64,000 bases of DNA. Source: Candidatus Omnitrophota bacterium (GTDB lineage Bacteria; Omnitrophota; Gorgyraeia; Gygaellales; JBFMHM01). Of this stretch, positions 36,678 to 53,253 are shown one piece after another. Below the pieces are notes generated by a model. That model did not search any database and was not told the DNA's origin. It worked only from the letters and a program-made list of their open reading frames with translations. The stretch covers positions 14,730 through 78,729 of the forward strand of contig JBFMHM010000005.1 in the NCBI GenBank assembly GCA_040753015.1, in the 5' to 3' direction. The position numbers and the translations under genes are program-made. The stretch's first letter is position 1. Each line of letters begins with the position of its first letter.

Positions 36678-36751
36678 TGGGCGCTAGAGGACTCGAACCC
36701 CTGACCCTCTCGGTGTAAACGAGATGCTCTAACCAACTGAGCTAAGCGCCC
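36678..36751 (-). tRNA. tRNA-Val (anticodon UAC)
   Basis: Manual cloverleaf: acceptor GGGCGCT/AGCGCCC, D arm GCTC-AGTTGGTTA-GAGC, anticodon stem TCTCG/CGAGA with loop TTTACAC, T arm AGGGG-TTCGAGT-CCTCT, discriminator A. CCA is not encoded. Confidence 0.85.
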
Positions 36752-36995
36752 TAACATCTACACTTTCATTTAAAAACTTTCTACCAACTCCGCTTTTAAG
36801 AAAATTTTCTCTTTTTCGCGCTTCTGTAATGTTTAAATATTGCTCTTTATAAATTAATTCGAAAGGACCATTTTCTTTAGTCCATTTATTAGAACCATAA
36901 TTATGTTGTTTAAGTCTATCTTCCGGTAAATTCTTAGTACTGCTTATATATCTCTTACCGTTACGTAAACTTTTTAAGACATAAACATAATACAT
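36729..36995 (-). CDS. Small GIY-YIG nuclease-domain protein; its 3' end overlaps the tRNA-Val gene
   Basis: YYVYVLKSLRNGKRYISSTKNLPEDRLKQHN...GPFELIY...EARKRENFLKSGVGRKFL, the GIY-YIG motif pattern. Confidence 0.7.
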   Translation of the reverse strand: MYYVYVLKSLRNGKRYISSTKNLPEDRLKQHNYGSNKWTKENGPFELIYKEQYLNITEARKRENFLKSGVGRKFLNESVDVRALSSVG

Positions 36996-37090: not shown

Positions 37091-37531
37091 CTACGCTAAT
37101 TTACCTAAAACGCCTAAGGTAAATGCCATAACAAAAAGTGCGACTGTCTCAATAACGCCTAATACAACTATATAATTACCAAAACCTTTATTTGTTTCAC
37201 CCATAGCATCACTTGCCGCAGCAGCACATTTACCCTGCCAAAGCGCAGACATACCAATAGCTAAACCAGCAAAAATACCTAAACCCCAAAAATATTGCCC
37301 TTTCGCGGCAAGTTCGGCAATTTTATTCATTACGATCATTCCATAAATTGTCTGAGTAAGAGGCGCTCCAACAAAGGCAATTAACATAAAAGATGCTGTT
37401 TTATTTTGAGAAAAGCTTTTCTTCCAAGCGCCAATAGCTGCCATGCCAGCTATACCCGCACCCCAAGCTGAACCAATACCAGACAAAGCAAGCACAGCAA
37501 TCAAACCTAAATCCTTGAATTGCGCAAGCAT
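37091..37531 (-). CDS. ntpK: V-type ATPase proteolipid subunit K
   Basis: 146 aa, four hydrophobic helices, Gly-rich GIGSAWGAGIAG pattern. Confidence 0.8.
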   Translation of the reverse strand: MLAQFKDLGLIAVLALSGIGSAWGAGIAGMAAIGAWKKSFSQNKTASFMLIAFVGAPLTQTIYGMIVMNKIAELAAKGQYFWGLGIFAGLAIGMSALWQGKCAAAASDAMGETNKGFGNYIVVLGVIETVALFVMAFTLGVLGKLA

Positions 37532-37534
37532 TTT

Positions 37535-39376
37535 TTAATCCTCCTTTAAGGGCCTGTAACTAAAACCTAGCCATTTAATATCTGCGTGGCTACAAAACTC
37601 TAAAACATTCAGCCGTATACCATGAACTAAAACCGACATCGGCCCAAGTATTAAATTTAAACCATGCCCAACTATCAAAATAAATACCGCAACAATCAGA
37701 TTAATAATATTCGCCTGCCAGTTAATACTACTAGCCATTAAATTAAATGTGTCAGCAACAGCTACACTAGCAAGCCCAACCGCAAAAAGACGCACATAAG
37801 ATACTACATCGGTAAAGTTGTTCATAATTGTAAGTGCAAGATTACCTAACCCGGCGCCAATCGCCTTCAAGATATTCTTCTGTGGGCTTGTAAACAGAAC
37901 TACAAAGATTACGCCGGATAACAACATCCATTTTGCTGCTGCTGGAAATGAATCTCCTAAAATAAGCGCCTTTGCCAAAAAGAATACTACCCAAAGGACT
38001 AAAATCCAACCAATGTCAACTAAAGCCGCCAAAGAAGGAAGTTTAATTATTGCTCTCCACAAGTGAGCCAGGCTTAAATGCAAAGCACCTAAAAAGAAAC
38101 AAAAAGTTTGCAATACGTTTGTATTGTTTAATGCCGGAGCAAGTGGTTTTATTGTCTTGGGCAGCCAACTCTGGCCAAAAAATGTGCCTGTCAATAACCC
38201 CCATATAATAGCGCAACCTATCAAAATATAAAAGAGAAAAAATATTTGTTTTTCATTCTTATTAAATTTCCTCTTTTTCTGTATCGAAAATGTAATTAAT
38301 AAATAAACTAATCCATAGCCAGCGTCGCCAATAATCATTCCGAAAAATATGCTAAAGAATATTAAAAATATCCTGCTAATATCTAACTCATGATACCCTG
38401 GCACAATCTCAACTAGTTTAAATACAGGCTCAATAATAGAAACCCACTTAGGGTTACGCACTAAAGTCGGAATAACATCTTCATCTGTTGGATCATTAAT
38501 CAAAATTGCCCATTTTTTAATCTTTGCACGTTCAGTTATTTTATTAGTTAAATCAGACGGCACAAACCCAACAAAATAAGAAAAAACCTCTTTCTTACCA
38601 CTTGCGCAAAGCACCTTCTGGAATTCAAGCTCTTTTTCAAGCCGAGATTTTACTTTTAAAAAATACTCATTAAAACAAGTATATTTATGCAAATCCGCTC
38701 TTAATAAACTTATTGTTTTTGCATCCTCGTCTTTTCTTTCAATCATCGCAGAGAGACGCATCTGCGGCAAGGAAACTTCTTTAAAAGGCACATCAATATT
38801 TTCCTGCCTGCTCGCCTCGCGGCGAAGCCGAGGGCCATCAGGCATGGCTGTTGCGATAACTAAACAATTAACTATGGCTGCTTTGGTTGAAATTTTTTCT
38901 ATAATTAAATTGGAGGGGAATTTATTTAATTCATTAGCCGGAACTTGATATAACTTTACAAAAATATTTTTCTTAGCTAAAGAGTGGATTTGTTCTATGT
39001 CAAAATCTCCCCATAAACGCCACTGGTCAATTTTATGTAAAAGCTGCTTTGAGTATTCCTCAAGATGGTCAATTCTTTTCCAAGAATCAATAATATGCCT
39101 TGCGCTTATTTTCCAATCAGTAATTTCTCTTTCCAGGTGTATTGCCTTACAATTCTCATACACCTCAAACTCTGCCAATACTTCTAATGCTTGATTTATT
39201 AGGCTTAAATCTGCTTCTAGACTTGTAATATTACTCGAACTTACAACATTTTGCATCTCAACATGTAAAACTCCTAGCCCCCTTAAATTTATTAATGCAT
39301 CTTCTTTATCTTTATCCTGCACAATAATTGCTACTTTTTTCATTGGCACAATCATTCGTCGCTTTTCGCTCCTCAA
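37535..39376 (-). CDS. ntpI: V-type ATPase subunit I (membrane a-subunit homologue)
   Basis: 613 aa, hydrophilic N-terminal half plus a polytopic C-terminal half. Operon position between D and K. Confidence 0.8.
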   Translation of the reverse strand: MRSEKRRMIVPMKKVAIIVQDKDKEDALINLRGLGVLHVEMQNVVSSSNITSLEADLSLINQALEVLAEFEVYENCKAIHLEREITDWKISARHIIDSWKRIDHLEEYSKQLLHKIDQWRLWGDFDIEQIHSLAKKNIFVKLYQVPANELNKFPSNLIIEKISTKAAIVNCLVIATAMPDGPRLRREASRQENIDVPFKEVSLPQMRLSAMIERKDEDAKTISLLRADLHKYTCFNEYFLKVKSRLEKELEFQKVLCASGKKEVFSYFVGFVPSDLTNKITERAKIKKWAILINDPTDEDVIPTLVRNPKWVSIIEPVFKLVEIVPGYHELDISRIFLIFFSIFFGMIIGDAGYGLVYLLITFSIQKKRKFNKNEKQIFFLFYILIGCAIIWGLLTGTFFGQSWLPKTIKPLAPALNNTNVLQTFCFFLGALHLSLAHLWRAIIKLPSLAALVDIGWILVLWVVFFLAKALILGDSFPAAAKWMLLSGVIFVVLFTSPQKNILKAIGAGLGNLALTIMNNFTDVVSYVRLFAVGLASVAVADTFNLMASSINWQANIINLIVAVFILIVGHGLNLILGPMSVLVHGIRLNVLEFCSHADIKWLGFSYRPLKED

Positions 39377-39399
39377 AATAAAAAATTAAAATGCAACAA

Positions 39400-40008
39400 T
39401 CAAAAACCCAATACTTCTTCTAATTCAATCTTACTTTTAGTAATTTTACTACGGCCTACAGCGTTAGCCATTTGATCACCTAAATAAATTTTGATTATCC
39501 GTATCGTCTCCAAACATTGAGGAATCTTAACTTTTTCAAATAAATTTACGCGCTGAGTAGTAATGCGCATCTCCTGGCGTAACACTTCAACTCCTTTTTT
39601 AATAAATCTTAATTCTTCTTCTAGGCAAACCGTTGCTTTTATCGCTAAAATAGCATAGTCTACCCAAAGCGGAGCTAAAAATAAATCATACTCAATTGGT
39701 TTAAACTCACAGCTTTTTAAACAGGCAATATCAACGCCGGCGACATTTTTTGTATAGGTAATATTTTTCTCTAATTGGATAAATTTTTTTATATCAAAGT
39801 TGTCTGTAAAAATACCACTATACATCAAAACCTCTTTTTTCTTTTGAGCAAGCCTATGCTCTCTTTCTTCCAAAAGAGAAAGTTGCGCTAAAATTTCCAT
39901 CTGCAGTTGCTGCTTTTTTAATTGCAAAGTGGGCAGGTAACGCTCATATTGCCTTAAAGCGTCTTTTTGTTTTTTTAATTCGCCTTTAGTAAGCTTAATC
40001 TTTGCCAT
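39400..40008 (-). CDS. ntpD: V-type ATPase subunit D
   Basis: N-terminal KLTKGELKKQKDALRQYERYLPTLQLKKQQL matches the subunit D consensus. Length is 202 aa. Confidence 0.7.
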   Translation of the reverse strand: MAKIKLTKGELKKQKDALRQYERYLPTLQLKKQQLQMEILAQLSLLEEREHRLAQKKKEVLMYSGIFTDNFDIKKFIQLEKNITYTKNVAGVDIACLKSCEFKPIEYDLFLAPLWVDYAILAIKATVCLEEELRFIKKGVEVLRQEMRITTQRVNLFEKVKIPQCLETIRIIKIYLGDQMANAVGRSKITKSKIELEEVLGF

Positions 40009-40038: not shown

Positions 40039-40980
40039 CTACCTTTTACGCTCTCTATTATCTTGGTAGGTTTTTACTGCCTCAAAGCTCGTCAACCAAT
40101 TTCTGCCTTCTTTATAAGCTTCAATCTTTCCTTGACGACAAAGTAAATTTAAATATTTTTCTGAATAGGGTGTAGTCTTTGCAATCACTGATAACAACAT
40201 AAATTTACCTTTACTGTCTTTTGCGCCAACTAGAGTTTTTAAGTAAAGATTAATTGAACGCTCAACTGCCTGTGCTATAAATCTTACAAATTGAATATAA
40301 TTTCCTTTATCAGCTTTTTCTAAACTATCATAATATTTTTTACGATCATTTTTTAAAATAACAATTAATGGATAGCCTTTTTGCATAAGTAATAAATTCA
40401 TTACTAAGCGGGCAGTACGCCCATTGCCATCGAAAAATGGGTGTATAAAAACAAGCTTGTGGTGGACTATTGTAGCTAACTCTATCGGGTGTAGCTTATT
40501 TTTATTTACTCTTATCCATTCTAATAAATCCTTCATTAATATAGGCACTTCAAATGCGTCTGGCGGCCTATGAGATGAACCAGTAATAATAACATTGCCC
40601 TTGCGATATACCCCAGCTTCTTTTGGCTCTGTATCTTTTATAACCAATTGCTGAAGGTTACGAATTAATATTTCAGAAAAAGTAGCTCGCTTCCCATGCT
40701 CAATTAATTCGTACAAATAATTAAGTGCTTCGTAATGATCTTTTGCCTCAAGGTGATCCTTTAAAGATTTACCCTTAATAGTAATACCTTCGTTAATAAT
40801 TAAATAGGTCTCTTTAAGTGTAAGCTTATTACCTTCAATCGCATTAGAATTATAAGTCATTTCAATAGCAAACTGCTCTCTAAGCTTTGCTACTTGCTCA
40901 GGAGATAAAGGGCGCAGCTTCTGCAACTCTTTGAGTTTTGAATCTACACGCTCTCTTAAATGATCCTCTAAATATTTCAT
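40039..40980 (-). CDS. Fic/Doc family protein (AMPylation-type fold) with a C-terminal winged-helix-like region
   Basis: Canonical Fic motif HPFFDGNGRTARL. Confidence 0.85.
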   Translation of the reverse strand: MKYLEDHLRERVDSKLKELQKLRPLSPEQVAKLREQFAIEMTYNSNAIEGNKLTLKETYLIINEGITIKGKSLKDHLEAKDHYEALNYLYELIEHGKRATFSEILIRNLQQLVIKDTEPKEAGVYRKGNVIITGSSHRPPDAFEVPILMKDLLEWIRVNKNKLHPIELATIVHHKLVFIHPFFDGNGRTARLVMNLLLMQKGYPLIVILKNDRKKYYDSLEKADKGNYIQFVRFIAQAVERSINLYLKTLVGAKDSKGKFMLLSVIAKTTPYSEKYLNLLCRQGKIEAYKEGRNWLTSFEAVKTYQDNRERKR

Positions 40981-41088
40981 TTTCTTAATATGGTATGGCT
41001 TACTTTTTCATAGTATACCATATTAGCATATTTGTGCAATAAATTTTATTTCCTCGGAAAAATCTGTTGCAGCTGTGCTTGTGGGATG

Positions 41089-41122
41089 TTTGCGGTAAGT
41101 ACTATTAGGATATCGCGTAGAT
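41089..41122. repeat. 34-bp direct repeat, copy 1 (tttgcggtaagtactattaggatatcgcgtagat); it begins a diverged duplicate of the 3' end of the giant gene
   Basis: Identical 34-mer at 41909-41942. In the giant gene's frame the copy-1 region reads ...NLRDILIVLTANIPQAQLQQIFPRK*, against the giant's C-terminus ...HLRDILIVLTANLSQIQLRQIFLRKN*. Confidence 0.8.
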
Positions 41123-41143
41123 TTAGATCGACAGAATAATAAT

Positions 41144-41497
41144 TTATGCTCTATTCTCTTGATTTATAATTTGTTGAACATCTTTCTGAAGAGCTGGAAT
41201 TTTTTTAACAACAACATCCCAGACAATATCATAATCTACACCAAAATAATCATGTATTAATACATCTCGCATACCAGCGATTGCCTTCCACTCTATATTG
41301 GGATATTTATGTTTTAATTCGTCGGGGATCTTTTTTGTAGCTTCTCCAATAATTTCTATACTACGGACAAAAGCCCTCTGTAATGTTTCATTGCAAATAA
41401 ATTTATCCCTATCTAATTCAATTGACTTATCTGTAAGATACTTTGTTTCTTCTAAAATATGAAATAGATATTCAATTCCGGGAAATGACATATTCAA
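41144..41497 (-). CDS. HepT-like HEPN-domain toxin (DUF86)
   Basis: Rx4-6H HEPN motif [10 protein letters not shown]. The gene overlaps the upstream mntA-like gene. Confidence 0.7.
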
Positions 41498-41777
41498 CTT
41501 CTCTCATAATATTTGGTTTAATATAAGGGCTCAATGATTCATTGGTTACTAATTCAATACGTTGCTTAAGTAAATCCTCTAATAAAAAAGAAAGATGCAC
41601 AAAATTATCAAATGTTTTTTTATCACGATAAAATTCTACCAACAGATCTATATCGCTCTGAACAGTTTGTTCTTTTCGCACAAACGATCCAAATAAACCA
41701 AGCTTTTTTACACCAAAAGTCTTAATTTTATCTTGATTATCTCTGATAATCGATAAAACATCTTCTTTGCCAAACAT
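41472..41777 (-). CDS. MntA-like nucleotidyltransferase antitoxin
   Basis: [23 protein letters not shown] minimal nucleotidyltransferase motif (GS...DxD). Confidence 0.8.
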
Positions 41778-41862
41778 AATATTTCACCTCTTTTAAGATT
41801 CATTATAATCTTTATTTGAAAAAATTAAAGATATTTTTTAATTTGGTTTTTTTATTCAAAAA

Positions 41863-44800
41863 CTAATTCTTCCTCAAAAAAATCTGGCGTAACTGAATTT
41901 GTGATAAATTTGCGGTAAGTACTATTAGGATATCGCGTAGATGTAGGTTAGTGGGAATATATTGTTCCTCTTCTTGGCGCAATATTTTTGCGATAGAAGA
42001 AATTGTTTTCTGCTTATCTGTAAGATTCACTTCAATTATATTCGTAACATCCGCGCTGGTTAAATTATCAATTGCCTGCGTCACAATTGGCAAATTTGTA
42101 AAATCTATACCACCTAATGGTGAGCCTGTCGAACCATCAATTCCGCCTGGCTCTTCGGGTGCATTAGCTACGGTTGTATCTCTTTTCGGCAAAGTGATTG
42201 TGTAAACTAAACTATTTTCGGCTTCGTCGTAAACTACATTTACGCCTCCTCCGTGCATTTGAATAATTTGCCATAATAAATCCATGCCAAGCCCTTTGCC
42301 TGCGTCTTCATCAGAATAATCTGTAATTTCGCCAGTTTGTTCTTTTGTTAAAAACATATTTTGCCGGTTAAAATGCGAGTTAGTTTCAGTTAATCGTCTA
42401 AGTTCTACACTTGGCGCAACTTTTTTGCATTTTACAGTTAACGTGTATCCAGAGCCGCTTTCTTCTAAACTAATTTCTGGCTTTTCACTGCCATGTTTTA
42501 TAGTATTACTAAAAATCCTTGATGTAGCAAAACTAAATAAATCTAGATCAGCATAAATATTTTGACTGCTTAAATCATCTGAATAAACAACATCTTTTCT
42601 TTCTACTCTGCGCCCACCTGTATGATATGAACTTAAATTATTAAATACAGAATCAAATAATCCACCTAAAGGAATTTTAGTTTTTTCAACTTCGTCACTG
42701 AATAACTTCTTTAAAAACGATAAACTTGTTCTTAATTGCTGGCTTTTGGTTTGCATTTTCTCATACTCTGCAATAAATCTTGTATCATTTATGTGAGATT
42801 CGCGCTCTGTTTCAATAATAGCTTCGATTTTATCGCAAGTATCTACTAAGCCATCAATTGCTTTGATTATTTCGGCTTTATACTCTGCTAAATACTCGAC
42901 AACATTTTTATCAATTAACATTGCATGTTTAATGGCGAGAAAATAGTCGTAGTAATTGTTAAATTTTTCTATAAGGGGATTTCTATCATCCCATTTCGAA
43001 TAATCTACTCTTAGAACAAGAGTATCATATTCTGCACGTAAAACAGCCATAATATGCGCAATTGGCATTTGGCCATGTCCTAATACAATGCGTAGACCAT
43101 AAAACACGCGCTCAAAGTCTAATTGTTCCTGGCTATAACTTTCACCAGATTGTAAATAAGCAATTATGCGTCTTAAACCTTGATTATATTGTTCTTTTAA
43201 ACTACCGGAAAGATGCTTTTCCTTGACATATTCAATCAATTCAGTAACTGTTGTTGGCTTATCCTCCTCACCACAAACACCCTCTCGTATTAGCCTTTCT
43301 CGCTCTTCTTCACTAAATCCAGCGGCTTTTAAAATATGGGCTTTTTGCCTAATTTCTTCTGGCGTGTATGCCTTATCTGGGTTGGGATGTTTAGCAGGCC
43401 TGCCATCTGGGTCAATTACATAACAATGCCCTTTCTCTTTACCAACCAAATGCGCTTTGACAATTGCATCAAGTTCTGTATCGCTGACCGTTCTACCTAA
43501 AACTTCCTCCGCGCGGAGTTTCAAGGACAAGCGTTCTAAGGTATTTATAACTTCATTTCCTACAATCACCCTCGATGTATACATTTTTCCTTCAAGATCT
43601 TGGAAGTAATCATGAAGATGGACCATGGTATCCGTTCTTGGATGTATCTCGTTTCCTAATAAACATGCATATAATTCATTAAGTATAAGATCTATGTTAT
43701 TTGGATTATATCCACCCACTGTATTCATAATTCTGATAAGCTTATATTGTTCATCAGGATCTACCTTATCCCATATTGTTTTGACACCATCTCTTATAAA
43801 AGGCTCAGTAAAATAAAGGCCATGGCGAAACTCATGGCGTACTACTTGCCCTCGCTCAGGAGAATCTTGAGCAACTGAGATAATAGCAATTGTTTTTGAG
43901 TGGCTAGGGACATATTTGCCATTCGTATATTTCATAAAACCGAATCGCAATAAGTCATCTTTTATTTTTAATTCTGTATCATTTAAAACAATGCCTTTCT
44001 TTTTAGCTTGCGTATAGAATTTACAGATATCCTCAATTCTAAAATCATACCCTATACCTTTTTTTTCTTCACCTTTATCATATGCCTCTTTTAAGCGTCG
44101 ATCATCTAATACGTTGCCTGCATTCGTATCTGATTCGGTAAAAACAGACAGCCTAAAAAAGGCATCATCTTGAAGGCCTGTTGTTGCAAATTCAATATGA
44201 AATATATCTTCATCGCTGACCTGATAAAATTTATATTTGTGATCTATTGGTAAACTAAGTTTCTCCAACTCAGCGACACGTATACTTTCAATTCCATCTG
44301 GTTTTGTAATGTCTGAAGTTAGAGCAACTTCTACTCTTTGTGATACTCTTTGCTCTTCGGCTAATACTGGTTTATTTCCAATACTAATTCCCAAAAATAA
44401 CGCTAGAGGAATTAAAAAACTTCGCCATCTTCCAATCTCAAATAATCTTGAAGTAGAAACCGACGTAGCGCTTGGCATATTCGCATAACGCGTCGTTCCA
44501 TAACGTAAATTATACGCAATAGAACAAATCTCCTCTCTCGTCAATCGCTCTAATGGTTCCTTTTCTTCAAACCATACTGCTAATTGTTCTTCTTTTCTCA
44601 TATCAGAAACTCTATCATCAGAATCAAAAATAAAACCGCCACCGAGCCTTTTATTGATTTCTTGAAAAAAACCATAACCCTCATTCACTACCTTATCTGA
44701 ATCATAAAAAACACCGTGCATACCTATAATAATGTTAACTAAAGCATAATATGGCGTAATTTCGGCTTCGGCGTAACGCGAGGTACCTTCAGAATTAGAA

Positions 44801-47800
44801 ACTCCTAACAATTCCCTCCGTTTGTGTTCTATTTCATGTTCTCGAGTCGAACGAATTATACTATCAGTAATCTCATCTATATCCTTCTCGCCAAATTCTC
44901 GTAAAAACATTTGAAAAATCTGCCAATTCAACGTAGATGAATTAGTTGAAAAGTTTCGGAATCTTCTTCTAGACATAAAATCATCTTTGTTTGTTATTAT
45001 TTCTTTAATATTTTGAGCATGCTCTCTACAAGCAGAAACATTAATAATTACAGCGTTTTCATTTGTGATGCACAGACCAAGCAGACGCCATTGATAAAAT
45101 GGCTCTAGAAAAACTACCCCTATTTTTCTCTTCTCTAATTTTACTAGTTCACAGTCAATAACGCTTCCTATTGTTACAATGTATCTACGATATGCACTAC
45201 GTGATAATATTCTCTCTACTACAGCTATATCTTTCTCCCCACAAACGCCTGTTCGAATTAGTTTATCTCCCTCTTCCATAGTAAAACGCTTATCTCGCAT
45301 AAGTATAGTTAATATAGCTTTAAGGTCTGCGCGTCTAAAAGCTTTGGCTTTTTCGGGATTTCTGGCAGGATTATCGTCTGAACCAATTACATAACTACGC
45401 CCTCTTCTTATGCCTTCTTCGTGCGCTTCTATAATTGCATCAAGCTGTTCCTCAGTAACACCGTCTTTCCATTTTACTGGGTCAAGTTCTTGTAATGCCT
45501 TGTTGGCTGCCTCTCGAAGGCCTTGACGTTCTGCGGTAGAAACTGTAGTAAGAGTTGCCGCGGATTGTCGCCCTGCTACCGCCACTACTCCATCGCCTGT
45601 TTGTAAATCGGCAGAATATACAGTTGAAAATACCATTAAACCTGTTAGGTCTCCTGAATAACTCTGACGCAATCCTCCTAACTTACTATATTCTCTATTC
45701 AACATAACACCTAAATCAGAAATAATTGCTCTTCTTGAATACATTCTTATTCCCATATCATAATCTCTTAGATCTTCCGCTGGTTTTTCTCTCCCATAAA
45801 ACCAACCTTGTTTATATAATGATAGTGCATATGATCCCTGAGTGATTTCTAATAAACCACAATCTACGCTTTTACCCCCCAGACTAGGAGCAATAAACCC
45901 TAAAGCATCCGGTTTCATTATTTTTTTATAATTTGATGTGACGCTATTTATATTCGTAACCGCGGGACTCAACCAAAAAACAACATCATATTCTACGCTA
46001 TGATCTTCGGCAAATTCATCATCCAATAATCTAGAAATACCGGTTATCCTATCATCACTAAGCTCTGTTAACTCAGAGTCAACGCAAGTAATATGTATAT
46101 TTGGATACTGCTCTTTTAATAAATCTCTTATTACTCTTCCTTCCAGTAAAGTAGGGCCGCAGCCAATAACCGCAATATTTAATTTTCTTTCTTTATCACT
46201 GCCAAATCTAGCTTTGATCAAATCAATAAGATTAGCCTCTATTGGCTTTGCGCTAAGCATCACTCTAACAGCTTGCCATTCACTTAAGGTAGAAAGATAT
46301 TGTTCAAAACCAGATGGATTTTTCATTCCTGCATTTGTTTCAATAAATCCTCTAACCACTCTTCCCAATACAGTATTAGATTTATCTTCATCTGGTTGCG
46401 CTATAGGATTAACCTGCCAATCTTTACCTCTGTTAAAGAATTGTTGGGTTAGTCCTATGGCGGCATAGTGGTCTAAATATTGGTCTGGAATATTTTCTAA
46501 AGCTTCGTGTAGGATATATTCATCAATTAAATCTTTTGGCAAGCCGGCTTGGCCTTCTTGGCTAAACAAATACCAAATTAAATTTACAGCTAAAGCACAA
46601 TTTGAGCCAAGGAAGTAGCGGTTAGAGAATTCTGCTCTTGCATTAAACCAGTTAAAATACTCGGGTGGAGAACGTAAACAAGCAAACACTCTTTTAACTT
46701 GCTCTGCTGGAATGTTACGAGCTTCAAGCAAGCGCCTTAATTCAGCTTCACGGCTAATTATTCTAGCAGCTCGTTTATTTACCAATCCAACTACAGATTG
46801 GCCTGCTGCTTTTACAGTCTCAGAGTCCTGCCTAATATCCGCCTCAATTTGTATTATCTCCTCTGCGCTGTATCCGCGGGCAATTTGACCAGAACCTTCA
46901 TCTTTACTATGTACCACCACCTGATCTCCACTCACGCTTACTCTTTTAAGATAATCTGCACCTTCTGGCACAAGACTGTCGCCTGCAGGCAAACAGGTTA
47001 CAGAACTACCGGTTATCGGATCAACTGCGCGCTCTCCAACTTGCGGTATTTGACTAATGTTAAATACCGCTCCTCCACTAGTATATGTGCGGATAATTTT
47101 AGCTTTTGCTGTGGGGATAACTTCTTTTATATTGTATTCGCCTTCTTTGAAGGATTTTTCGTATTGGCGATAGTAGGCATCTATTGACCAGGGAGTTTTT
47201 GAAGTGAGATTGGTTAAATCACCAGAATCTATTTTTAATTTATCTTTATGTCTTTCTTTAAACCACTGGGCAATGATTAGAGAATAATAGACTTGCCTTA
47301 AAGCAGCGTAACGTTTTGATGAATTAATTTCTTTGTTAAGTTTTGGGATGATTAGTTCTTTAATAAGCTGTGCAGAATAATCGTTCAAGATTTTATCATT
47401 TTGGTTGCTATCAAACTCCCCCTTTATCCCCCTCTTTGGCAAAGAGGGGGCCTGGGGGAGTTGTCGGTGTTCTGCTTCTAACATCACCTTCATTGTTGCT
47501 TTGTAAACATAGCAAGAACCTTTATTTTCAGCAATAATTATCTCATCAGGAACAATCCATGGGCGAAGAAGAGTGGGGATTTTAATTTTTGTTGCGCCTT
47601 GTTGTAACTCTTTTGCCTTTATAAATAGCTTATTCCAATATTCTTTACCTTCTTTTGTTTTAGGTGAGGTTAATTTAGCTGTATCTTGTTTTAACTGAAC
47701 GTCGGCTTCAAGAAGAATTCTACCAACATCAGTTTGAGCTAATCGTTCGTCAATAACATTATTTTGTTCATTAGGCCCTAAACCAGAGCTCACTTCGTTC

Positions 47801-48132
47801 GCACGATTCAGGGCAGGTCTTAAGTTTACCCAAAATGTTTTATTGGGAAGAGCTAAACCTACGAAAAAATAATTTAAGAGATTTTTTGTTTCGGATTGAA
47901 TTTGTTTATTGCTAGGATTATTGATACTGCCTTTATCTAAAAACAGCTTAAAGTTGTTGGTATCTGGAAGATAAGAAAGATAGCGCAAATGAATTGGGCG
48001 GAATGGTTGCCCCGAAAAACCCGTAAAGGCTTCACCTACGGGCCCCGGGGTTAACGTGTTTTGAAAACCATAACATAAGTTGTTAAAACAAAAAATCCCT
48101 GCTAATAATAAAGTAAATATCTTTTTAATCAT
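41863..48132 (-). CDS. Giant (2089 aa) multi-domain protein of unknown family. It has an N-terminal signal peptide, a second signal-peptide/TM-like segment near residue 1235, an internally duplicated ~80-aa module, an HExxH motif and a degenerate GHKL-ATPase-like C-terminus
   Basis: Single uninterrupted ORF. N-terminal MIKKIFTLLLAGIFCFNNLCYG. Internal MPSATSVSTSRLFEIGRWRSFLIPLALFLGISIG. Module copies around TEEQLDAIIEAHEEGIRRGRSYVIGSDDNPA...LIRTGVCGEKD and SDTELDAIVKAHLVGKEKGHCYVIDPDGRPA...LIREGVCGEED. VVRHEFRHG. C-terminal IFSNTIKHG...DAGKGLGMDLLWQIIQMHGGGVNVVYDEAENSLVYTITLP. Confidence 0.5.
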   Translation of the reverse strand: MIKKIFTLLLAGIFCFNNLCYGFQNTLTPGPVGEAFTGFSGQPFRPIHLRYLSYLPDTNNFKLFLDKGSINNPSNKQIQSETKNLLNYFFVGLALPNKTFWVNLRPALNRANEVSSGLGPNEQNNVIDERLAQTDVGRILLEADVQLKQDTAKLTSPKTKEGKEYWNKLFIKAKELQQGATKIKIPTLLRPWIVPDEIIIAENKGSCYVYKATMKVMLEAEHRQLPQAPSLPKRGIKGEFDSNQNDKILNDYSAQLIKELIIPKLNKEINSSKRYAALRQVYYSLIIAQWFKERHKDKLKIDSGDLTNLTSKTPWSIDAYYRQYEKSFKEGEYNIKEVIPTAKAKIIRTYTSGGAVFNISQIPQVGERAVDPITGSSVTCLPAGDSLVPEGADYLKRVSVSGDQVVVHSKDEGSGQIARGYSAEEIIQIEADIRQDSETVKAAGQSVVGLVNKRAARIISREAELRRLLEARNIPAEQVKRVFACLRSPPEYFNWFNARAEFSNRYFLGSNCALAVNLIWYLFSQEGQAGLPKDLIDEYILHEALENIPDQYLDHYAAIGLTQQFFNRGKDWQVNPIAQPDEDKSNTVLGRVVRGFIETNAGMKNPSGFEQYLSTLSEWQAVRVMLSAKPIEANLIDLIKARFGSDKERKLNIAVIGCGPTLLEGRVIRDLLKEQYPNIHITCVDSELTELSDDRITGISRLLDDEFAEDHSVEYDVVFWLSPAVTNINSVTSNYKKIMKPDALGFIAPSLGGKSVDCGLLEITQGSYALSLYKQGWFYGREKPAEDLRDYDMGIRMYSRRAIISDLGVMLNREYSKLGGLRQSYSGDLTGLMVFSTVYSADLQTGDGVVAVAGRQSAATLTTVSTAERQGLREAANKALQELDPVKWKDGVTEEQLDAIIEAHEEGIRRGRSYVIGSDDNPARNPEKAKAFRRADLKAILTILMRDKRFTMEEGDKLIRTGVCGEKDIAVVERILSRSAYRRYIVTIGSVIDCELVKLEKRKIGVVFLEPFYQWRLLGLCITNENAVIINVSACREHAQNIKEIITNKDDFMSRRRFRNFSTNSSTLNWQIFQMFLREFGEKDIDEITDSIIRSTREHEIEHKRRELLGVSNSEGTSRYAEAEITPYYALVNIIIGMHGVFYDSDKVVNEGYGFFQEINKRLGGGFIFDSDDRVSDMRKEEQLAVWFEEKEPLERLTREEICSIAYNLRYGTTRYANMPSATSVSTSRLFEIGRWRSFLIPLALFLGISIGNKPVLAEEQRVSQRVEVALTSDITKPDGIESIRVAELEKLSLPIDHKYKFYQVSDEDIFHIEFATTGLQDDAFFRLSVFTESDTNAGNVLDDRRLKEAYDKGEEKKGIGYDFRIEDICKFYTQAKKKGIVLNDTELKIKDDLLRFGFMKYTNGKYVPSHSKTIAIISVAQDSPERGQVVRHEFRHGLYFTEPFIRDGVKTIWDKVDPDEQYKLIRIMNTVGGYNPNNIDLILNELYACLLGNEIHPRTDTMVHLHDYFQDLEGKMYTSRVIVGNEVINTLERLSLKLRAEEVLGRTVSDTELDAIVKAHLVGKEKGHCYVIDPDGRPAKHPNPDKAYTPEEIRQKAHILKAAGFSEEERERLIREGVCGEEDKPTTVTELIEYVKEKHLSGSLKEQYNQGLRRIIAYLQSGESYSQEQLDFERVFYGLRIVLGHGQMPIAHIMAVLRAEYDTLVLRVDYSKWDDRNPLIEKFNNYYDYFLAIKHAMLIDKNVVEYLAEYKAEIIKAIDGLVDTCDKIEAIIETERESHINDTRFIAEYEKMQTKSQQLRTSLSFLKKLFSDEVEKTKIPLGGLFDSVFNNLSSYHTGGRRVERKDVVYSDDLSSQNIYADLDLFSFATSRIFSNTIKHGSEKPEISLEESGSGYTLTVKCKKVAPSVELRRLTETNSHFNRQNMFLTKEQTGEITDYSDEDAGKGLGMDLLWQIIQMHGGGVNVVYDEAENSLVYTITLPKRDTTVANAPEEPGGIDGSTGSPLGGIDFTNLPIVTQAIDNLTSADVTNIIEVNLTDKQKTISSIAKILRQEEEQYIPTNLHLRDILIVLTANLSQIQLRQIFLRKN
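41909..41942. repeat. 34-bp direct repeat, copy 2, lying inside the last ~25 codons of the giant gene
   Basis: Identical to 41089-41122. Confidence 0.8.
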
Positions 48133-48198
48133 ATATAATAAGTATGCACTATGATAGGGGCAAATTCAAGGGTTTTGGGGCGAAAAATGTAAGCGCTT

Positions 48199-49011
48199 TC
48201 AGGATGTAGTTTTAACAAGCAATAGAATATTTTCTTTCGAGAATACTTCTAAATCTTTTTGTGTCTCAAGAAAATTTTCAATATCTTTTTTTACTTTATT
48301 CCAATCAGTATTTTCAATAGCCTTATATAAACAATCACGCCAGTTTTGCTCATTAGGAAATTCACCGCTATAACCAGTTTGCGTCAGAGAATTTTTAAGC
48401 AGAGCAAAATTAGGAGCTAGGCCTTTCCATTTAGACAAATACCAACCAATATCAAAAAAATCTCTACCCTTAGTATATTTTCTACTAAAAACAGCATGAA
48501 GCTTCCCGGCAAACAACGAAGAAAGGTCGTAAGATAAAAACATAATTGGGAAATATTTATTAATAATATCTTTCTTAGTAATTGCGCCTTTAGGAGGATT
48601 TGTATCTATATCAATCTTGATTGAGAATTTCTGGCTTTTAAGCGGAGAAATTCTTGCCTCATACAAGAGTTCCTCAAACTTTAGAAAAGCGCTATGGACT
48701 GTTTTTTGATCATTAAAGGAAACGGAAATTTTATACCCGGCTAGCACAAATTCCGATTTAATTTTCTCAATCAAATTAACAAAAGAATATTCTTTCTCTT
48801 TTTGTTCCAGAGAAAAATCTAGATCTTCTGAAAAACGCGGTAAATCATATAAAAACCGTAAAGCAGTCCCTCCTAAAAAAGCAGAATAACGAAAAAAACC
48901 TGCGTCATTTAGAATCTTTAAGGTATAGGCTTGAACATATTCCCGCATTGTATTCAGCTTCGCGCTTAGGCCTTCTTGTTTGGCAGCTAATTCTAAAGCA
49001 AATTCTTTCAT
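48199..49011 (-). CDS. AbiEii/AbiGii-family nucleotidyltransferase toxin (DUF1814)
   Basis: GGTALRFLYDLPRFSEDLDF signature. The gene overlaps the upstream AbiEi-like gene. Confidence 0.8.
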   Translation of the reverse strand: MKEFALELAAKQEGLSAKLNTMREYVQAYTLKILNDAGFFRYSAFLGGTALRFLYDLPRFSEDLDFSLEQKEKEYSFVNLIEKIKSEFVLAGYKISVSFNDQKTVHSAFLKFEELLYEARISPLKSQKFSIKIDIDTNPPKGAITKKDIINKYFPIMFLSYDLSSLFAGKLHAVFSRKYTKGRDFFDIGWYLSKWKGLAPNFALLKNSLTQTGYSGEFPNEQNWRDCLYKAIENTDWNKVKKDIENFLETQKDLEVFSKENILLLVKTTS

Positions 49012-49646
49012 AATAGTTTTTCTTTTTTAATTTCTAACTCGATATATTCTTTAATCATTTTTGCATCCCGTAAAATTCCCGGCTTATTAAATCTTTTTGC
49101 AAAAACAAATAGTTTTTCTAAATTAATTTTTTCAAGATTTTCTAATCTCAGTTCTTCAATGTAATCAAAAGAAACCTTAACTTCTCTTAGGTAAAAAAAA
49201 TCGAGCAAGGCTTTCTCGGGACAAGCAATGAAACCTGTTTGTTTATTTACTGTTACCGATTCATAGCCCCAAAATAAACTTTGTTTTATATGTCGGTAAT
49301 CAAAGATTCCTAACTTTGAAACAAACTTATAAGGCCGCTTTGTTGTAATACAGGTATAAATGCTAACAGCCTCAGGGATTAGATTATGGAATTCCAAAGC
49401 CTTTTCTAAACTAACATAAGAAGGACTTTTAACAATTGAAGCAAGATATGGTTCATAAATATCCAACTTTCTGTATGGCTTTGCTAAAATATAAATCCCT
49501 CTTCTAATTTGTATGAGTTTTCCTGATTTTCTCCAGCGATCAAGCTGCACCTTAACCGAACTAGGATTAACTACTCCAACAAGCAGCATTTCGCTATCGA
49601 TTACGGGTAAATTATCTGTGAGCTTAACAAATTCTTCCCATTTCAT
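49008..49646 (-). CDS. AbiEi-like antitoxin/transcriptional regulator (type IV TA, COG5340-like)
   Basis: 212 aa. Position immediately upstream of and overlapping the AbiEii gene. N-terminal wHTH-like segment. Confidence 0.6.
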   Translation of the reverse strand: MKWEEFVKLTDNLPVIDSEMLLVGVVNPSSVKVQLDRWRKSGKLIQIRRGIYILAKPYRKLDIYEPYLASIVKSPSYVSLEKALEFHNLIPEAVSIYTCITTKRPYKFVSKLGIFDYRHIKQSLFWGYESVTVNKQTGFIACPEKALLDFFYLREVKVSFDYIEELRLENLEKINLEKLFVFAKRFNKPGILRDAKMIKEYIELEIKKEKLL

Positions 49647-49697
49647 GGCAATATGTTAACATATTTGTTAACTTAATGCAATAAAAATTATTTAATT

Positions 49698-50987
49698 TTA
49701 TGGCCAGAATTTTTCAATCATCGATTTTTTGATGCCGGTTTCTTCGGGTAAGAAACATTTAGATAGAATTTGCCATCCCAGGTCGAGCGCTTTCTCTAAA
49801 GGAATGTTTACTTTTAAAGACATCATTTTATCCTCAAAAAGTTTTCCATAAGCAAGAAGCTTTTTGTCCCACTCACTCATTTGAAAACCCATTGCCTGTT
49901 TTTCCAGTGTTTGACGGTAACTGGCAAACAACTGAATCATTGTGTCCATTATAGTTCGGTGATCTTCGCGAGTTTTACCATTGACCTGTTGTTTTAAACG
50001 CGACAACGACCCAAATGGTTCGATTACAGAATTTTTAAGATAAAATTGTCCTTCAGTAATATAACCCGTATTATCGGGAACTGGATGCGTAATATCGTCA
50101 CCCGGCATCGTGGTTACAGCAAGAATTGTAATTGAACCAGCCCCTTCAAAATCAACCGCCTTTTCATAACGAAAAGCCATCTGGCTATAAAGATCACCAG
50201 GATAGCCTCTATTGGAAGGAATTTGCTCCATTGTAATTGAAACTTCTTTTAGCCCGTCGCAAAAATTTGTCATATCAGTTAATAGTACTAAAACTCTTTT
50301 CCCAGAGAGAGCAAACTGTTCAGCAACGGCTAAACTAATATCTGGCACAAGCAAGCATTCAACAATTGGGTCGCTAGCTGTATGGATAAAAAATATCGAA
50401 CGTGGAAGCGCTCCATATTCTTCTAGTGTATCTCGAAAGAAAAGATAATCATCGTGCTTTAAGCCCATTCCACCAAGGATAATAATATCTACCTCTGCTT
50501 GAATAGCAATCCTCGCTAAAAGCTCATTATATGGCTCACCAGCAATAGAAAATATAGGTAATTTTTGTGATTCTACGAAGGAATTAAAAACATCAATCAT
50601 AGGTATACCTGTACGAATCATTTTATTAGGAATAATCCTTTTAACTGGGTTAACAGATGGCCCGCCAATATCAACTAGATTTTCTTCAAGTTCTGGGCCT
50701 TTATCTATAGCGTTGCCTGCGCCGTTGAAAATCCTGCCTAAAAGATTATTTCCTGTAGATATTCTCATAGGGTGCCCTAAAAATTTTACTTTATCTCCAG
50801 TTGAAACACCGCGGGAACCGCTAAAAATTTGTAACGATACTCTTTTTTCTTCAATTCTAATCACTTGCGCCAAAGAAATCCCTTGCTTTGTATAAACTTG
50901 GGCAATTTCTGAATATCCTATTTGCTCTGCTTCAACCGTTATAACATCTCCGGCAATTTGAATAATATTTGTATAAATTTTATGCAC
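49698..50987 (-). CDS. ntpB: V-type ATPase subunit B (non-catalytic)
   Basis: 429 aa with the A/B-fold pattern and no canonical P-loop. Conserved [14 protein letters not shown]-type region. Confidence 0.85.
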
Positions 50988-52734
50988 CAGCTTTTTCTCC
51001 CTGTAAAATTTGCTTTTGCTTTACTAATAATAATATCTCTGTTTCAATTTTTTTAAATTCTTGGCCTTCAAAGATAGCAGAATTTAATCCTCGAAATAAC
51101 TGCCTAAGCTGTTGAAAAAAATGTAAAGCGCTTTGTTTATCGCTAAAATTAAACTTGTTTTCTAAAATATTGTTATATATAAAATCAAAAGCATATTTTT
51201 GCCGTGTTTGGTCAGTTGCTTCGTCTACTTTATCAAATGCATTTTGCTGCAAATAAACAAAATCAAAAAATTCTCCTTTTAAATAATCAATATAATCAGT
51301 CAAAGATGTACCTTCTTCGCCAATAACTTTCATCATCTCAAGTATATTGAAACTTCTTTTTAAAAGCTCGCGCCCTGCTTCCACTTTTTCTTTGTCGATA
51401 AAACTATTATATTTTGACCAGCTAATTAGCGGGTCAATCGCAGGGTATCGCCTGGCATCCGATCGTTCACGAGATAACCCATGAAATGCCCCCACTACCT
51501 TTAATGTTGCTTGTGTAACTGGTTCTTCAAAATTGCCTCCTGCAGGGCTGACTGCTCCGCCAATTGTTATAGAACCAGTAGTGCCATCGTATAATCTTAC
51601 CAGGCCTGCGCGTTCATAAAAAGAGGCAATTCGTGATTCTAGATATGCTGGAAACGCTTCTTCACCGGGAATTTCTTCCAGCCGCCCCGACATTTCCCTC
51701 ATTGCCTGTGCCCAACGGCTGGTTGAATCTGCTAAAAGCAAAACATTTAAACCCATCTGCCGATAATATTCAGCAATCGTTACTGCCGTATACACGCTAC
51801 TTTCCCGTGCTGCAACCGGCATTGAGCTGGTATTACAAATTATAATTGTCCGGTCAATTAAGGGACGATTTGTTTTTGGGTCAATTAACTCTGGAAAAGT
51901 TTTTAGAGTCTCTACGACTTCGCCTGCGCGCTCGCCACAAGCAGCAATTACCACAACATCCGCCTCCGCATGCCTAGAGGTTAATTGTTGCAAAACAGTT
52001 TTCCCTGCACCAAACGGTCCAGGCACACAATAAGTTCCGCCTAAAGCAACCGGAAAAAGTGAATCAATTAAGCGCATTTTTGTAACTAATGGTTTTGTTG
52101 GCCTTAACTTCTCTTGATAACAAGAAATTGGGATTTTTACCGGCCATCTTTGGACAAGAAAAATATCATGAATTTTCCCCTCTTCATCACGAAGCTCGGC
52201 AAGAACATGCGTTGAATTATAACTTCCTGAGTTTACAATTTTAGTAACTTCTAAAATACCTTTTAAACTAAACGGTGCCAAAATATAATGCTTAAATATT
52301 TTTTCCGGAACAAAACCAATCTTTTCTCCTGGCCGTACCCTATCTCCAACTTTGACTTGTGGCGTAAATTCCCATTTCGCCTGGGAATCTAATGCATTAA
52401 AATATAACCCGCGTTTTAGAAAAAATCCACATTCTTTTGCAATTAAGGGCAAAGGGTTTTGCAGACCATCAAATATTTGCCCCAAGAGCCCTGGGCCAAG
52501 CTCAACAGAAAGAAGCTCTTTGGAAAATTCAACTTCATCGCCAACCTTCAAATTAACTGTACTCTCGAAAACTTGCATCTGCGCTAAATTTCCCCGTATA
52601 CGAATAACTTCTGCCTTTAAACGTTCTTTACCGTGAATAATATAAGCAACTTCGTTTTGAATAACAAAACTATCAAAACTAACAGTAACCATATTACTAT
52701 TAATTCTCAATATTCGGCCAATTCGCTTTTCCAT
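50980..52734 (-). CDS. ntpA: V-type ATPase catalytic subunit A
   Basis: 584 aa. P-loop GPFGAGKTV. The non-homologous insert region is typical of A subunits. Confidence 0.9.
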
Positions 52735-53252
52735 AATACCTCTTCTAATATTTTTTCTTTATCTGCTTTAAAAACATTATCCCAACGTTCTAAAATATTT
52801 AATTTATAGGCATAAATTATCAAGTAATCTAAATCAAAATAATGCCCAAAGCTTAATTCATCTAAATAACTCCAGCGCGCTTCATCTAATATTTTTTCTG
52901 CATCTAATACATGAGGGTTCCTCTGTGCGCTAAGGGCAATATGAACAATTGCTGGCCCAGCATATACATCGGGGCGCAAATATTGCAGAGCATCAATCTT
53001 AATCCGCGCCGCACGCAATTTGACTAATTCATTCCTTAAAACTGTTTCGAAATCTAAAATTTTTTTTATTATTCCTTGTGTGCTATATTCATTTAAATTA
53101 TCTACCTTTGGTAAATTTTTTAAAATATCTAGATCTTTTGGGCTTAAGACATTCTCTGCCTTAGCGATAAATTCATCAAAGGTAAAAGGTAATTTTGCTT
53201 GAAATAATAAAGTTGGCAGACTCGAAATAAAATAAACATAATTTGCATTCAT
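52707..53252 (-). CDS. DUF2764-family protein that stands in for subunit C in Bacteroidota/Chlamydia-type V-ATPase operons
   Basis: N-terminal YVYFISSLPTLLF motif. Conserved operon position between subunits E and A. Confidence 0.55.
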   Translation of the reverse strand: MNANYVYFISSLPTLLFQAKLPFTFDEFIAKAENVLSPKDLDILKNLPKVDNLNEYSTQGIIKKILDFETVLRNELVKLRAARIKIDALQYLRPDVYAGPAIVHIALSAQRNPHVLDAEKILDEARWSYLDELSFGHYFDLDYLIIYAYKLNILERWDNVFKADKEKILEEVLWKSELAEY

Positions 53253-53253
53253 C

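Follow-up and report, generated by a model that had tools for sequence, protein, structure and literature searches.

The window analyzed here, a stretch of 64,000 nucleotides from an Omnitrophota genome, contains a V-type ATPase operon of the PVC type, pyrD-pyrF-E-DUF2764-A-B-D-I-K, in which the contiguity of subunits B and D is broken. The gene order on the minus strand is E-DUF2764-A-B, abiEi-abiEii, a gene for a 2089-aa protein, mntA-hepT, fic and D-I-K (Table 1). The block located between B and D covers 9.6 kb and is made up of defense and toxin-antitoxin (TA) genes and one very long membrane protein. The gene complement expected for the PVC/Bacteroidota-type operon (E-DUF2764-A-B-D-I-K) is complete. 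All seven genes of the two operon halves (49698..53862 and 37091..40008) are intact, full length and co-oriented, with 95-100% tblastn coverage when compared with 151 related loci. The junction gaps, originally given as roughly 50 and 30 nt, are 51 nt from the stop of B to the ATG of abiEi and 30 nt from the stop of fic to the ATG of D, and the left boundary of the inserted block lies at most about 13 nt from the stop codon of B. In all five small inserted proteins the catalytic motifs are intact.

Table 1. Features of the V-ATPase locus and of the block inserted between subunits B and D (nucleotide positions refer to the window; aa positions refer to the 2089-aa protein)
Feature	Position	Strand	Matches and remarks
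V-ATPase E	53862-53254	-	NCBIfam V-type subunit E 7.7e-40
DUF2764 (C-like subunit)	53252-52707	-	Pfam/NCBIfam
V-ATPase A	52734-50980	-	Pfam/NCBIfam
V-ATPase B	50987-49698	-	Pfam/NCBIfam
Predicted abiE promoter/operator	49647..49685	-	TTGCAT -35-like box and imperfect palindrome GTTAAC-AAATAT-GTTAAC directly before abiEi ATG
abiEi, type IV antitoxin/transcriptional regulator, 212 aa	49008..49646	-	PADLOC AbiEi 1.1e-51, full length
abiEii, DUF1814 nucleotidyltransferase toxin, 270 aa	48199..49011	-	Pfam PF08843 1.1e-23; PADLOC 8e-71, full length
Gene of the 2089-aa long protein	41863..48132	-	Family end modules
Long protein, hydrophobic N-terminal segment	aa 5-23
Long protein, conserved family N-terminal module	aa ~44-354
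Long protein, two 77-aa internal repeats	aa ~892-968 and 1549-1624
Long protein, one internal hydrophobic helix	aa 1239-1257
Long protein, weak GHKL-ATPase-like region	aa ~1780-1985
Long protein, conserved family C-terminal module	aa ~2000-2089
Direct repeat copy 2, functional 3' end of the long gene	41851..41946	-	34-nt exact core 41909-41942
mntA, MNT-type nucleotidyltransferase antitoxin, 101 aa	41472..41777	-	Pfam NTP_transf_2 1.2e-13; PADLOC PDC-S09 9.6e-36
hepT, HEPN RNase toxin	41144..41497	-	Pfam HepT-like 8.8e-27
Direct repeat copy 1, orphan C-terminal tail of the long family, YYSVDLNLRDILIVLTANIPQAQLQQIFPRK then stop	41031..41141	-	34-nt exact core 41089-41122
ACAAATATGCTAA	41023..41035	-	13-mer of the abiE operator, 43 nt upstream of fic ATG
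fic, Fic-domain protein, 313 aa	40039..40980	-	Pfam Fic 4.3e-22; PADLOC SoFic 7.9e-38
V-ATPase D	40008-39400	-	Pfam/NCBIfam
V-ATPase I	39376-37535	-	Pfam/NCBIfam
V-ATPase K	37531-37091	-	Pfam/NCBIfam

The B/D junction in relatives and the composition of the block

We compared the locus with 151 related loci that contain both B and D, 76 of them from genomes and 75 from metagenomes. B and D were adjacent in 151/151, with a median gap of ~31 nt and a maximum of ~1.3 kb, and homologues of any of the six inserted genes between B and D were found in none (0/151). The original prediction that the two genes are normally contiguous, and that they are interrupted here exactly at their junction by co-oriented non-ATPase genes, was borne out. 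Since the six genes are absent from this position in the relatives, the 9.6-kb block appears to be a lineage-specific insertion, as judged against relatives no closer than 85% identity in B. The best identities among the nearest relatives found were 85% for B and 65% for D, the latter coming from the metagenome scan.

The B/D spacer is the most length-variable one of the operon, being longer than 150 nt in 18 of the 151 loci versus 2-4 for the other ATPase junctions. One of the inserts found there contains an ORF that by eye reads as 23S-rRNA-IVP-like (L062), two contain ORFs that by eye read as GxxExxY-like (L040 and L044) and another contains a 438-aa ORF with a hydrophobic, signal-like N-terminal start (L009). 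Judging from these ORFs, B/D seems to be invaded by small selfish ORFs in other PVC lineages.

The pyrK/pyrD junction, located upstream of the operon, is likewise repeatedly invaded in related lineages. A 119-aa TauE-like ORF found between pyrK and pyrD was ruled out as a gene fragment, being kept in 16 relatives at 55-76% identity.

The central gene of the block had been described as GC-richer than the genes that flank it. This is weakly true for the small neighbors (0.368 versus 0.29-0.335), but ATPase A and B have values of 0.383 and 0.375, and in GC3 the long gene (0.263) is no different from the window average (0.267, sd 0.032). A foreign composition of the block was rejected, each of the six genes staying inside the window range in GC, GC3 and codon log-likelihood, so the compositional anomaly that the original prediction had anticipated is not there. 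The block has no integrase or transposase domain detectable with Pfam or NCBIfam and no tRNA or Rfam/ncRNA element, and a search for repeats, direct or inverted, at its two ends gave only short, chance-level matches. Among the marks of a classical genomic island, we found the absence from the same site in relatives, and found neither a mobility gene, target or repeats nor a deviant composition. The block does not have the look of a mobile island imported recently and in one piece. Its parts look separately acquired, because abiE has its own conserved promoter/operator and a tail duplication brackets mntA-hepT.

Defense and toxin-antitoxin modules

At least three modules of the block matched models of known systems (AbiE, MntA/HepT as PDC-S09 and a SoFic-like Fic), in agreement with the defense and TA content predicted for it. 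The abiEi and abiEii genes are bicistronic in this order and overlap by 4 nt. AbiEi scored under the curated cut-offs (NCBIfam TAA_AbiEi 31.6 versus 150 bits; Pfam AbiEi_4 23.3 versus 25) and is 66% identical to its partner in the Saganbacteria locus L164. In AbiEii the nucleotidyltransferase (NTase) motif reads by eye as GGTALR...DLDF. Homologues of abiEii are found in several phyla at 60-77% identity; the identity to a Saganbacteria protein (76%) is above that of V-ATPase D in the closest relative found (65%), which points to horizontal movement of abiE.

The overlapping bicistronic arrangement, the DUF1814 NTase toxin and the wHTH-type antitoxin are as in AbiE type IV TA/abortive infection systems (PMC3985639), and the putative toxin, antitoxin and phage-defense roles of the pair are assigned by this homology and by the motifs. 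The promoters of AbiE systems contain inverted repeats that are bound by AbiEi for autoregulation (PMC7319586), and in the window an imperfect palindrome overlaps the putative promoter just upstream of abiEi. The core of this promoter/operator region, TTGCATTA..TTA.CA.ATATGTTAA, recurs without change in two other abiE modules, those of L164 and of the Omnitrophota locus L166, and the hairpin of the palindrome (z = -2.2) is the sole unusual fold among the spacers. However, this operator, putative and proposed from conservation, is unrelated in sequence to the Streptococcus operator that has been studied.

In type VII TA systems, HepT is neutralized by oligo-AMPylation catalyzed by MntA. The pair in the window has the overlapping genes in the order mntA-hepT, the GSx..DxD motif of MntA (GSFVR...DID) and the Rx4HxY motif of HepT (RDVLIHDY). 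The likely start of hepT is the ATG at 41491, which gives a protein of 115 aa, equal to the NCBI protein P0331, and overlaps mntA. The pair differs from the type in that both proteins are under the NCBIfam equivalog cut-offs (43.1 bits for MntA_antitoxin and 40.5 for HepT, versus 60), its role being predicted from sequence, and in that the cassette is bracketed by the duplicated tail of the neighboring gene. The duplication has 96 nt, with an exact core of 34 nt, and its orphan copy starts 3 nt past the stop of hepT. Identity between the two copies was 37/38 at the core versus 35/53 at the tail (Fisher p = 1.7e-4). Such a duplication indicates at least one separate event. Elsewhere, an mntA/hepT pair is found upstream of guaB (L168).

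In the Fic protein the catalytic motif reads HPFFDGNGR, and near the N-terminus there is an inhibitory-helix motif, SNAIEG, of the class II type. The fold, the HPFxDGNGR motif and the N-terminal inhibitory motif are shared with SoFic, a single-gene Fic defense system (PMC12249575), and the PADLOC match to SoFic extends over residues 10-250. However, the protein has 313 aa versus the 361 positions of the model, and its NCBIfam ProtAdlyltaseSoFic score is 41 versus a cut-off of 550 bits. No small partner ORF was seen adjoining fic. The 13-mer of the abiE operator has 2 matches in the window versus 0.03 expected, for a pattern that was chosen post hoc, the only copy besides that in the operator being the one upstream of fic.

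No terminator-like site was found on the coding strand in any spacer, and a promoter scan gave 71 sites versus 64 ± 7 in shuffled sequence, i.e. no excess. All the inserted genes are co-oriented and terminator-like sites are missing from the spacers, so that read-through from the ATPase and block promoters probably keeps D-I-K expressed. Together with the shortness of the spacers, these features are indirect evidence that the block may be co-transcribed with the ATPase genes.

The long protein and its family

The 2089-aa protein belongs to a very large and uncharacterised family, mainly of Omnitrophota, whose members are conserved at both termini and vary in between. The N-terminal module (~310 aa, ending in RSYFSGG) comes directly after the hydrophobic leader, has 50-60% identity to >100 proteins and contains 76 invariant columns. 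It matches 7276 cluster representatives, and in the 150 best of them its position is N-terminal. The C-terminal module, which starts with GGIDF..LPIVTQ, was found in the window protein and in 35/119 homologues, always terminal. For the defining module of the family there is no Pfam model and no known fold was detectable. Outside the end modules, comparison with Pfam and PDB gave only weak GHKL/HATPase_c-like signals, all sub-threshold, and for the middle of the protein (aa ~450-1950) homologues were almost entirely lacking in the 119 best database matches.

Omnitrophota are also the source of the Archaeovorins, which are defined by a coding sequence of >20 kb with adjacent secretion/pilus loci (bioRxiv 10.1101/2023.11.21.568195; PMC10066038). 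Like these giant proteins, the one described here is long, membrane-associated and poorly annotated, and members of its family carry HEAT, HATPase_c, radical SAM, PEP-utilising, GGDEF and HAD domains, matching by description the published domain list. Unlike them, it has 2089 aa (a 6.3-kb gene) and not >20-40 thousand, and its gene is flanked by TA and ATPase genes, without secretion/pilus genes.

Other members of the family also adjoin TA genes or small selfish ORFs. In another population, inverted repeats of ~650 nt enclose a block consisting of NTase/HEPN genes and a long-family gene, and this block is present in both orientations. On one contig a relative of the long gene sits just after phage tail genes. 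That the family is generally phage-borne was ruled out: members were found on only 2 of 2.9 million viral contigs, both with one and the same tail-gene context.

Probable stepwise assembly of the block at a permissive junction

We consider it likely that the block is a composite, built stepwise from independent defense/addiction modules at the permissive B/D junction, and not one mobile island. The abiEi/abiEii pair, a type IV TA/abortive-infection module, would have arrived with its own autoregulated promoter/operator. A second module would be the 2089-aa member of the mainly Omnitrophota family of long membrane proteins, at the tail of whose gene the mntA/hepT type VII cassette would have been inserted as a third, and the fourth would be an auto-inhibited SoFic-like Fic AMP-transferase. 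The two TA pairs and Fic may work as addiction or abortive-infection defense modules, while the long protein may be a variable protein of the envelope whose GHKL-like ATPase part lies inside the cell. These functions are predicted from homology and motifs. None of the inserted modules would be functionally linked to the ATPase, and B/D would have been used as the site because no other junction of the operon is as tolerant.

The six genes are co-oriented and tightly packed, AbiE recurs elsewhere together with NTase/HEPN and with Fic, and there is the long-gene relative next to phage tail genes, all of which would agree with a pre-assembled mobile defense island inserted in one step and mobilised in trans or by a recombinase lost since. 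Even the uniform composition fits if the donor had a similar one, e.g. another Omnitrophota genome or its phage. However, we regard this origin as unlikely, since besides the missing integrase, transposase, terminal repeats and tRNA target, the duplication around mntA-hepT points to at least one separate event, the middle of the long protein is almost without homologue among the best matches, the gene combination was repeated in none of the context loci inspected and family members are so scarce on viral contigs. Very unlikely, in our opinion, is a functional integration of the inserted genes with the ATPase, for example by a dependence of D-I-K on AbiEi-regulated promoters that would couple energy conservation to the defense state. 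None of the 151 relatives needs the inserted genes, and elsewhere the same modules adjoin unrelated housekeeping genes. The short distance from fic to D with no terminator between them does speak for such a link, as does the recurrence of the operator 13-mer upstream of fic, which hints at a shared regulator in the block, although that pattern was selected post hoc.

The window comes from a metagenome-assembled genome, in which a chimeric contig might falsely place accessory genes inside an operon. Here, such an artefact would require two independent false joins that restore operon order and strand at both sides. In addition, B and D are full length with their ends intact, the composition is uniform across both junctions and the left junction, ~13 nt from the stop of B, is followed by a complete abiE promoter. 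An assembly error is therefore extremely improbable.

Defense islands and TA islets accumulate at permissive intergenic hotspots. The stepwise composite that we favor has in common with them the clustering of unrelated defense/TA modules, the absence from relatives and components with close homologues across phyla. Comparable islets were found between housekeeping genes in L164 (abiE-HEAT-NTase/HEPN) and in L166 (abiE-abiE-Fic). In contrast, the block in the window is inside a conserved bioenergetic operon and not between operons or beside an integrase or tRNA, mobility genes are missing from it and its largest gene is not among the recognised defense genes. Overall, the insertion is real, but as accessory insertions at tolerant spots go it is a fairly ordinary one. 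It is a clear case of a defense/addiction block of 9.6 kb being tolerated at one specific junction by a bioenergetic operon that is highly conserved, and it bears on how far operon architecture constrains the accretion of accessory genes in uncultured bacteria with small genomes. The long-protein family, and the association and recombination of TA cassettes with its genes that are hinted at here, may matter more than the island.

An exact core of 34 nt followed by diverged tails at both sides of mntA-hepT is what a circular TA cassette with a replacement tail would leave on integration by a single crossover, with the long ORF kept intact. This leads to the idea that in Omnitrophota long-family genes and small TA cassettes may form dynamic units in which the 3' tail of the long gene, being conserved, acts as a recombination landing pad. 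In neither of the two closest HepT contexts does mntA/hepT lie downstream of a long-family gene, neither the viral collection nor the 161 loci searched contain the 34-nt core, and no other orphan tail of the family was found in the 2.07 Mb of DNA examined. Because these searches gave no support, we hold the idea to be of low probability. If it were general, it would represent a new mechanism of cassette capture and variation in a family with thousands of members. The block with ~650-nt inverted repeats in the other population fits it.

Position of the block within the V-ATPase operon

We have mapped the ORFs of the block and of the V-ATPase operon and found them in one continuous minus-strand series, with identities from Pfam, NCBIfam and PADLOC that agree with the coordinates and genes originally predicted. 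The spacers at the junctions of the block with B and D are 51 and 30 nt long. Compared with relatives, each of the seven ATPase genes is full length, and nothing is missing from the C-terminal end of B or the N-terminal end of D.

Coordinates of the operon and block genes, and of ORFs found between B and D in other PVC lineages
Feature	Locus	Coordinates	Strand	Remarks
V-ATPase E	window	53862-53254	minus	
DUF2764	window	53252-52707	minus	C-like subunit
V-ATPase A	window	52734-50980	minus	
V-ATPase B	window	50987-49698	minus	
abiEi	window	49646-49008	minus	
abiEii	window	49011-48199	minus	
long gene	window	48132-41863	minus	2089-aa ORF
mntA	window	41777-41472	minus	
hepT	window	41497-41144	minus	
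fic	window	40980-40039	minus	
V-ATPase D	window	40008-39400	minus	
V-ATPase I	window	39376-37535	minus	
V-ATPase K	window	37531-37091	minus	
B-D insert	L062	11285-11800		129-aa ORF, 23S-rRNA-IVP-like by eye
B-D insert	L040	11288-11740		ORF GxxExxY-like by eye; 132-135 aa (L040, L044)
B-D insert	L044	1572-2026		ORF GxxExxY-like by eye; 132-135 aa (L040, L044)
B-D insert	L009	11288-12598		438-aa ORF, hydrophobic signal-like N-terminal start

Related operons were collected with subunit B (one genome per species; 80 loci, mainly from Omnitrophota and others of the PVC group, identity up to 85%) and with subunit D in metagenomes (80 further loci, identity up to 65%). The expectation that B and D are normally adjacent was borne out: D came directly after B in 151 of the 151 loci carrying both genes, with homologues of the six block genes between them in none. 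The gap had a median of ~31 nt, exceeded 300 nt in seven loci and reached ~1.3 kb at most. The order pyrD-pyrF-E-DUF2764-A-B-D-I-K was kept in the Omnitrophota relatives. Neither search returned a close relative, the best identities being 85% for B (genomes) and 65% for D (metagenomes). Since B and D are adjacent elsewhere and the ATPase genes are intact, the block is an insertion specific to its lineage in an otherwise intact operon.

The B-D spacer was also the most variable within the operon, longer than 150 nt in 18 of the 151 loci versus 2-4 at E-DUF2764, DUF2764-A, A-B, D-I and I-K, and small, unrelated inserts of independent origin occupy it in other PVC lineages (see table). This boundary has the genes of the A3B3 head on one side and those of the stalk and membrane on the other, and we infer a stoichiometric "punctuation" point there. 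At the neighbouring pyrK-pyrD junction, inserts of 0.36-2.7 kb were found in about half of 43 loci. Accretion inside operons thus seems to be common in Omnitrophota.

Several minor features emerged from the same loci. The B-D spacers of many relatives (L088, L103, L112, L087, L095, L133 and others) contain GC-rich palindromic sequences (GGGACTGTCCC...GGGACAGTCCC type), possibly REP-like elements or else attenuator hairpins. A 119-aa ORF between pyrK and pyrD in the window (55446-55805) has a match to the TauE/SafE model that is limited to the C-terminal half of that model; it is not a gene fragment, being found in the same place with 55-76% identity in 16 relatives. Four loci deposited as Methanobacteriota, Methanoregulaceae, Methanomicrobiales and Methanoregula MAGs (L017, L025, L026, L029) have a V-ATPase operon of Omnitrophota type, in which B shares 80-82% identity with that of the window, and are probably Omnitrophota contigs binned with methanogens. 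Some Omnitrophota have been reported as predators of archaea, so co-abundance may be behind it.

Composition and separate modules of the block

The original prediction was of a defence or conflict island. An operon split by an inserted block of conflict genes is indeed what we found, but a single island of foreign composition is unsupported. GC was 0.29-0.37 in the island genes versus 0.340 ± 0.033 in the other 52 ORFs of the window, GC3 0.20-0.27 versus 0.267 ± 0.032, and codon log-likelihood -0.85 to -1.02 versus -0.98 ± 0.06, none of them a mark of recent foreign origin. The central gene, thought to be GC-richer, is so against its small neighbours and at codon positions 1 and 2 only, but its GC equals that of ATPase A and B. 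No integrase or transposase domain was detected in the block (Pfam, NCBIfam), nor any tRNA or Rfam element inside it, and direct or inverted repeats at its ends were at chance level. With the composition of the window, these hallmarks absent and modules that look separate, we favour, with fair confidence, a stepwise accretion, in which modules for TA/defence would have gathered, along with a hypervariable gene for a long protein, at a permissive B-D junction.

The abiE module is the first of these. The 40 nt upstream of abiEi contain the imperfect palindrome GTTAAC-AAATAT-GTTAAC (fold z = -2.2) as well as a TTGCAT box, and the core TTGCATTA..TTA.CA.ATATGTTAA is invariant before the abiE pairs of two other loci, one from Saganbacteria (L164) and one also from Omnitrophota (L166). 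AbiE is an autoregulated system (PMC3985639, PMC7319586), and the invariance at three loci suggests that the module moves together with its own putative promoter/operator, as expected of such a system. The left boundary of the block lies no more than ~13 nt from the stop codon of B. Homologues of AbiEii 60-77% identical were found in Saganbacteria, Elusimicrobia, Planctomycetes and Omnitrophota, exceeding the 65% of subunit D in its closest relative found, which points to horizontal mobility. Small islets resembling the block are set among housekeeping genes at other loci: L164 has abiE-HEAT-NTase/HEPN between priA and coaBC, and L166 has abiE-abiE-Fic with a porin gene on one side and a GH57 gene on the other.

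A 96-nt direct repeat flanks the pair mntA-hepT on both sides. One of its copies forms the genuine 3' end of the long gene; the other copy starts 3 nt past the hepT stop and codes for an orphan tail, YYSVDLNLRDILIVLTANIPQAQLQQIFPRK*. Their 34-nt exact core has no further occurrence in the window. Identity along the copies is uneven (37/38 in the core versus 35/53 in the tail, p = 1.7e-4), which speaks for recombination. A circular cassette with mntA-hepT may have integrated at the tail of the long gene by a single crossover, or else a second long-family gene may have been deleted and its remnant partly converted; on both options this event is separate from the remainder of the block. Another mntA-hepT pair was found upstream of guaB in L168, again beside a housekeeping gene.

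The predicted abortive-infection, toxin-antitoxin and Fic genes are present, with PADLOC matches for AbiEi (1e-51), AbiEii (8e-71), Fic (SoFic, 8e-38) and MntA (PDC-S09, 1e-35). Their motifs are intact: GGTALR...DLDF in AbiEii (an NTase motif, read by eye), GSFVR...DID in MntA, RDVLIHDY in HepT, and HPFFDGNGR in Fic, together with an inhibitory SNAIEG motif in its N-terminal part. The small proteins look functional. SoFic, MntA and HepT score under the NCBIfam equivalog cut-offs, and the assignments are best taken at the family level, not as equivalogs. In the abiE operator, the 13-mer ACAAATATGYTAA is a sequence with just two copies in the window, both upstream of starts, at 49656-49668 (abiEi) and 41023-41035 (fic). 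The second is 43 nt from the fic start (0.03 matches expected in 64 kb, for a pattern picked post hoc), and that fic is co-regulated through AbiEi is a speculative possibility.

The family of the long protein

The 2089-aa protein has a hydrophobic N-terminal leader (aa 5-23), one internal hydrophobic helix (aa 1239-1257), two internal repeats of 77 aa (42% identical) and sub-threshold GHKL/HATPase_c-like signals near aa 1780-1985. Among its 119 best homologues, aa ~44-390 are common to all and the last ~90 aa to about a third, the middle being essentially unique. The N-terminal module, for which there is no Pfam model, has 76 invariant columns in an alignment of 40 sequences. It matches 7276 cluster representatives, 3316 of them at E ≤ 1e-30, and the 150 best matches are all N-terminal, in proteins of 410-7391 aa. 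The enzyme domains of the family are very diverse (GNAT, methyltransferase, HATPase_c, GGDEF, HEAT, kinase, radical SAM, HAD, PEP-utilising), an assortment that resembles the domain list reported for the Archaeovorin-type giant proteins of Omnitrophota.

Other members also have small selfish or TA genes as neighbours. One (L081) is flanked by PDDEXK_5 and 23S-rRNA-IVP ORFs, another (L174) adjoins an NTase/HEPN pair, and one lineage is placed just after phage tail genes; only 2 viral contigs carried a member. The L174 unit (3163-9308; also L175 and L176), HEPN-NTase plus the long-family gene P0022, has ~650-nt inverted repeats at its ends that are 80-97% complementary. The same study provides a second sample in which its DNA, 100% identical, is assembled the other way round with respect to the CSD-MFS flank, so that it looks like an inversion polymorphism. 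The more novel leads are this uncharacterised family and the association, apparently through recombination, of its genes with TA cassettes.

Expression and surroundings of the split operon

All block genes are co-oriented with the operon and no spacer has a terminator-like site on the coding strand, which makes read-through into D-I-K, with help from island promoters, plausible. The total of terminator-like sites equals the shuffled expectation, spacer folds are ordinary except for the abiE palindrome, and the promoter scan was not above background.

The other 45 ORFs scanned are mainly housekeeping (PEPCK, pyr and pur genes, Pst/PhoU, two-component systems, ABC transporters), and the window has its main defence cluster in the block. 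Outside it, the PADLOC candidate PDC-S01 is matched (best E 5e-112) by two genes for AAA_14/DUF4143 ATPases, which are candidates for further accessory or defence genes; one of the two, at 26264-27568, lies on the plus strand, as does just one other gene of the window. Directly downstream of K (36201-36995) there are a GIY-YIG ORF (36995-36729), a tRNA-Val (36751-36678) overlapped by the last 23 nt of that ORF, a 23S-rRNA-IVP ORF (36566-36201) and a tRNA-Asp. The IVP ORF is also kept after K in two related loci (L006 and L027).
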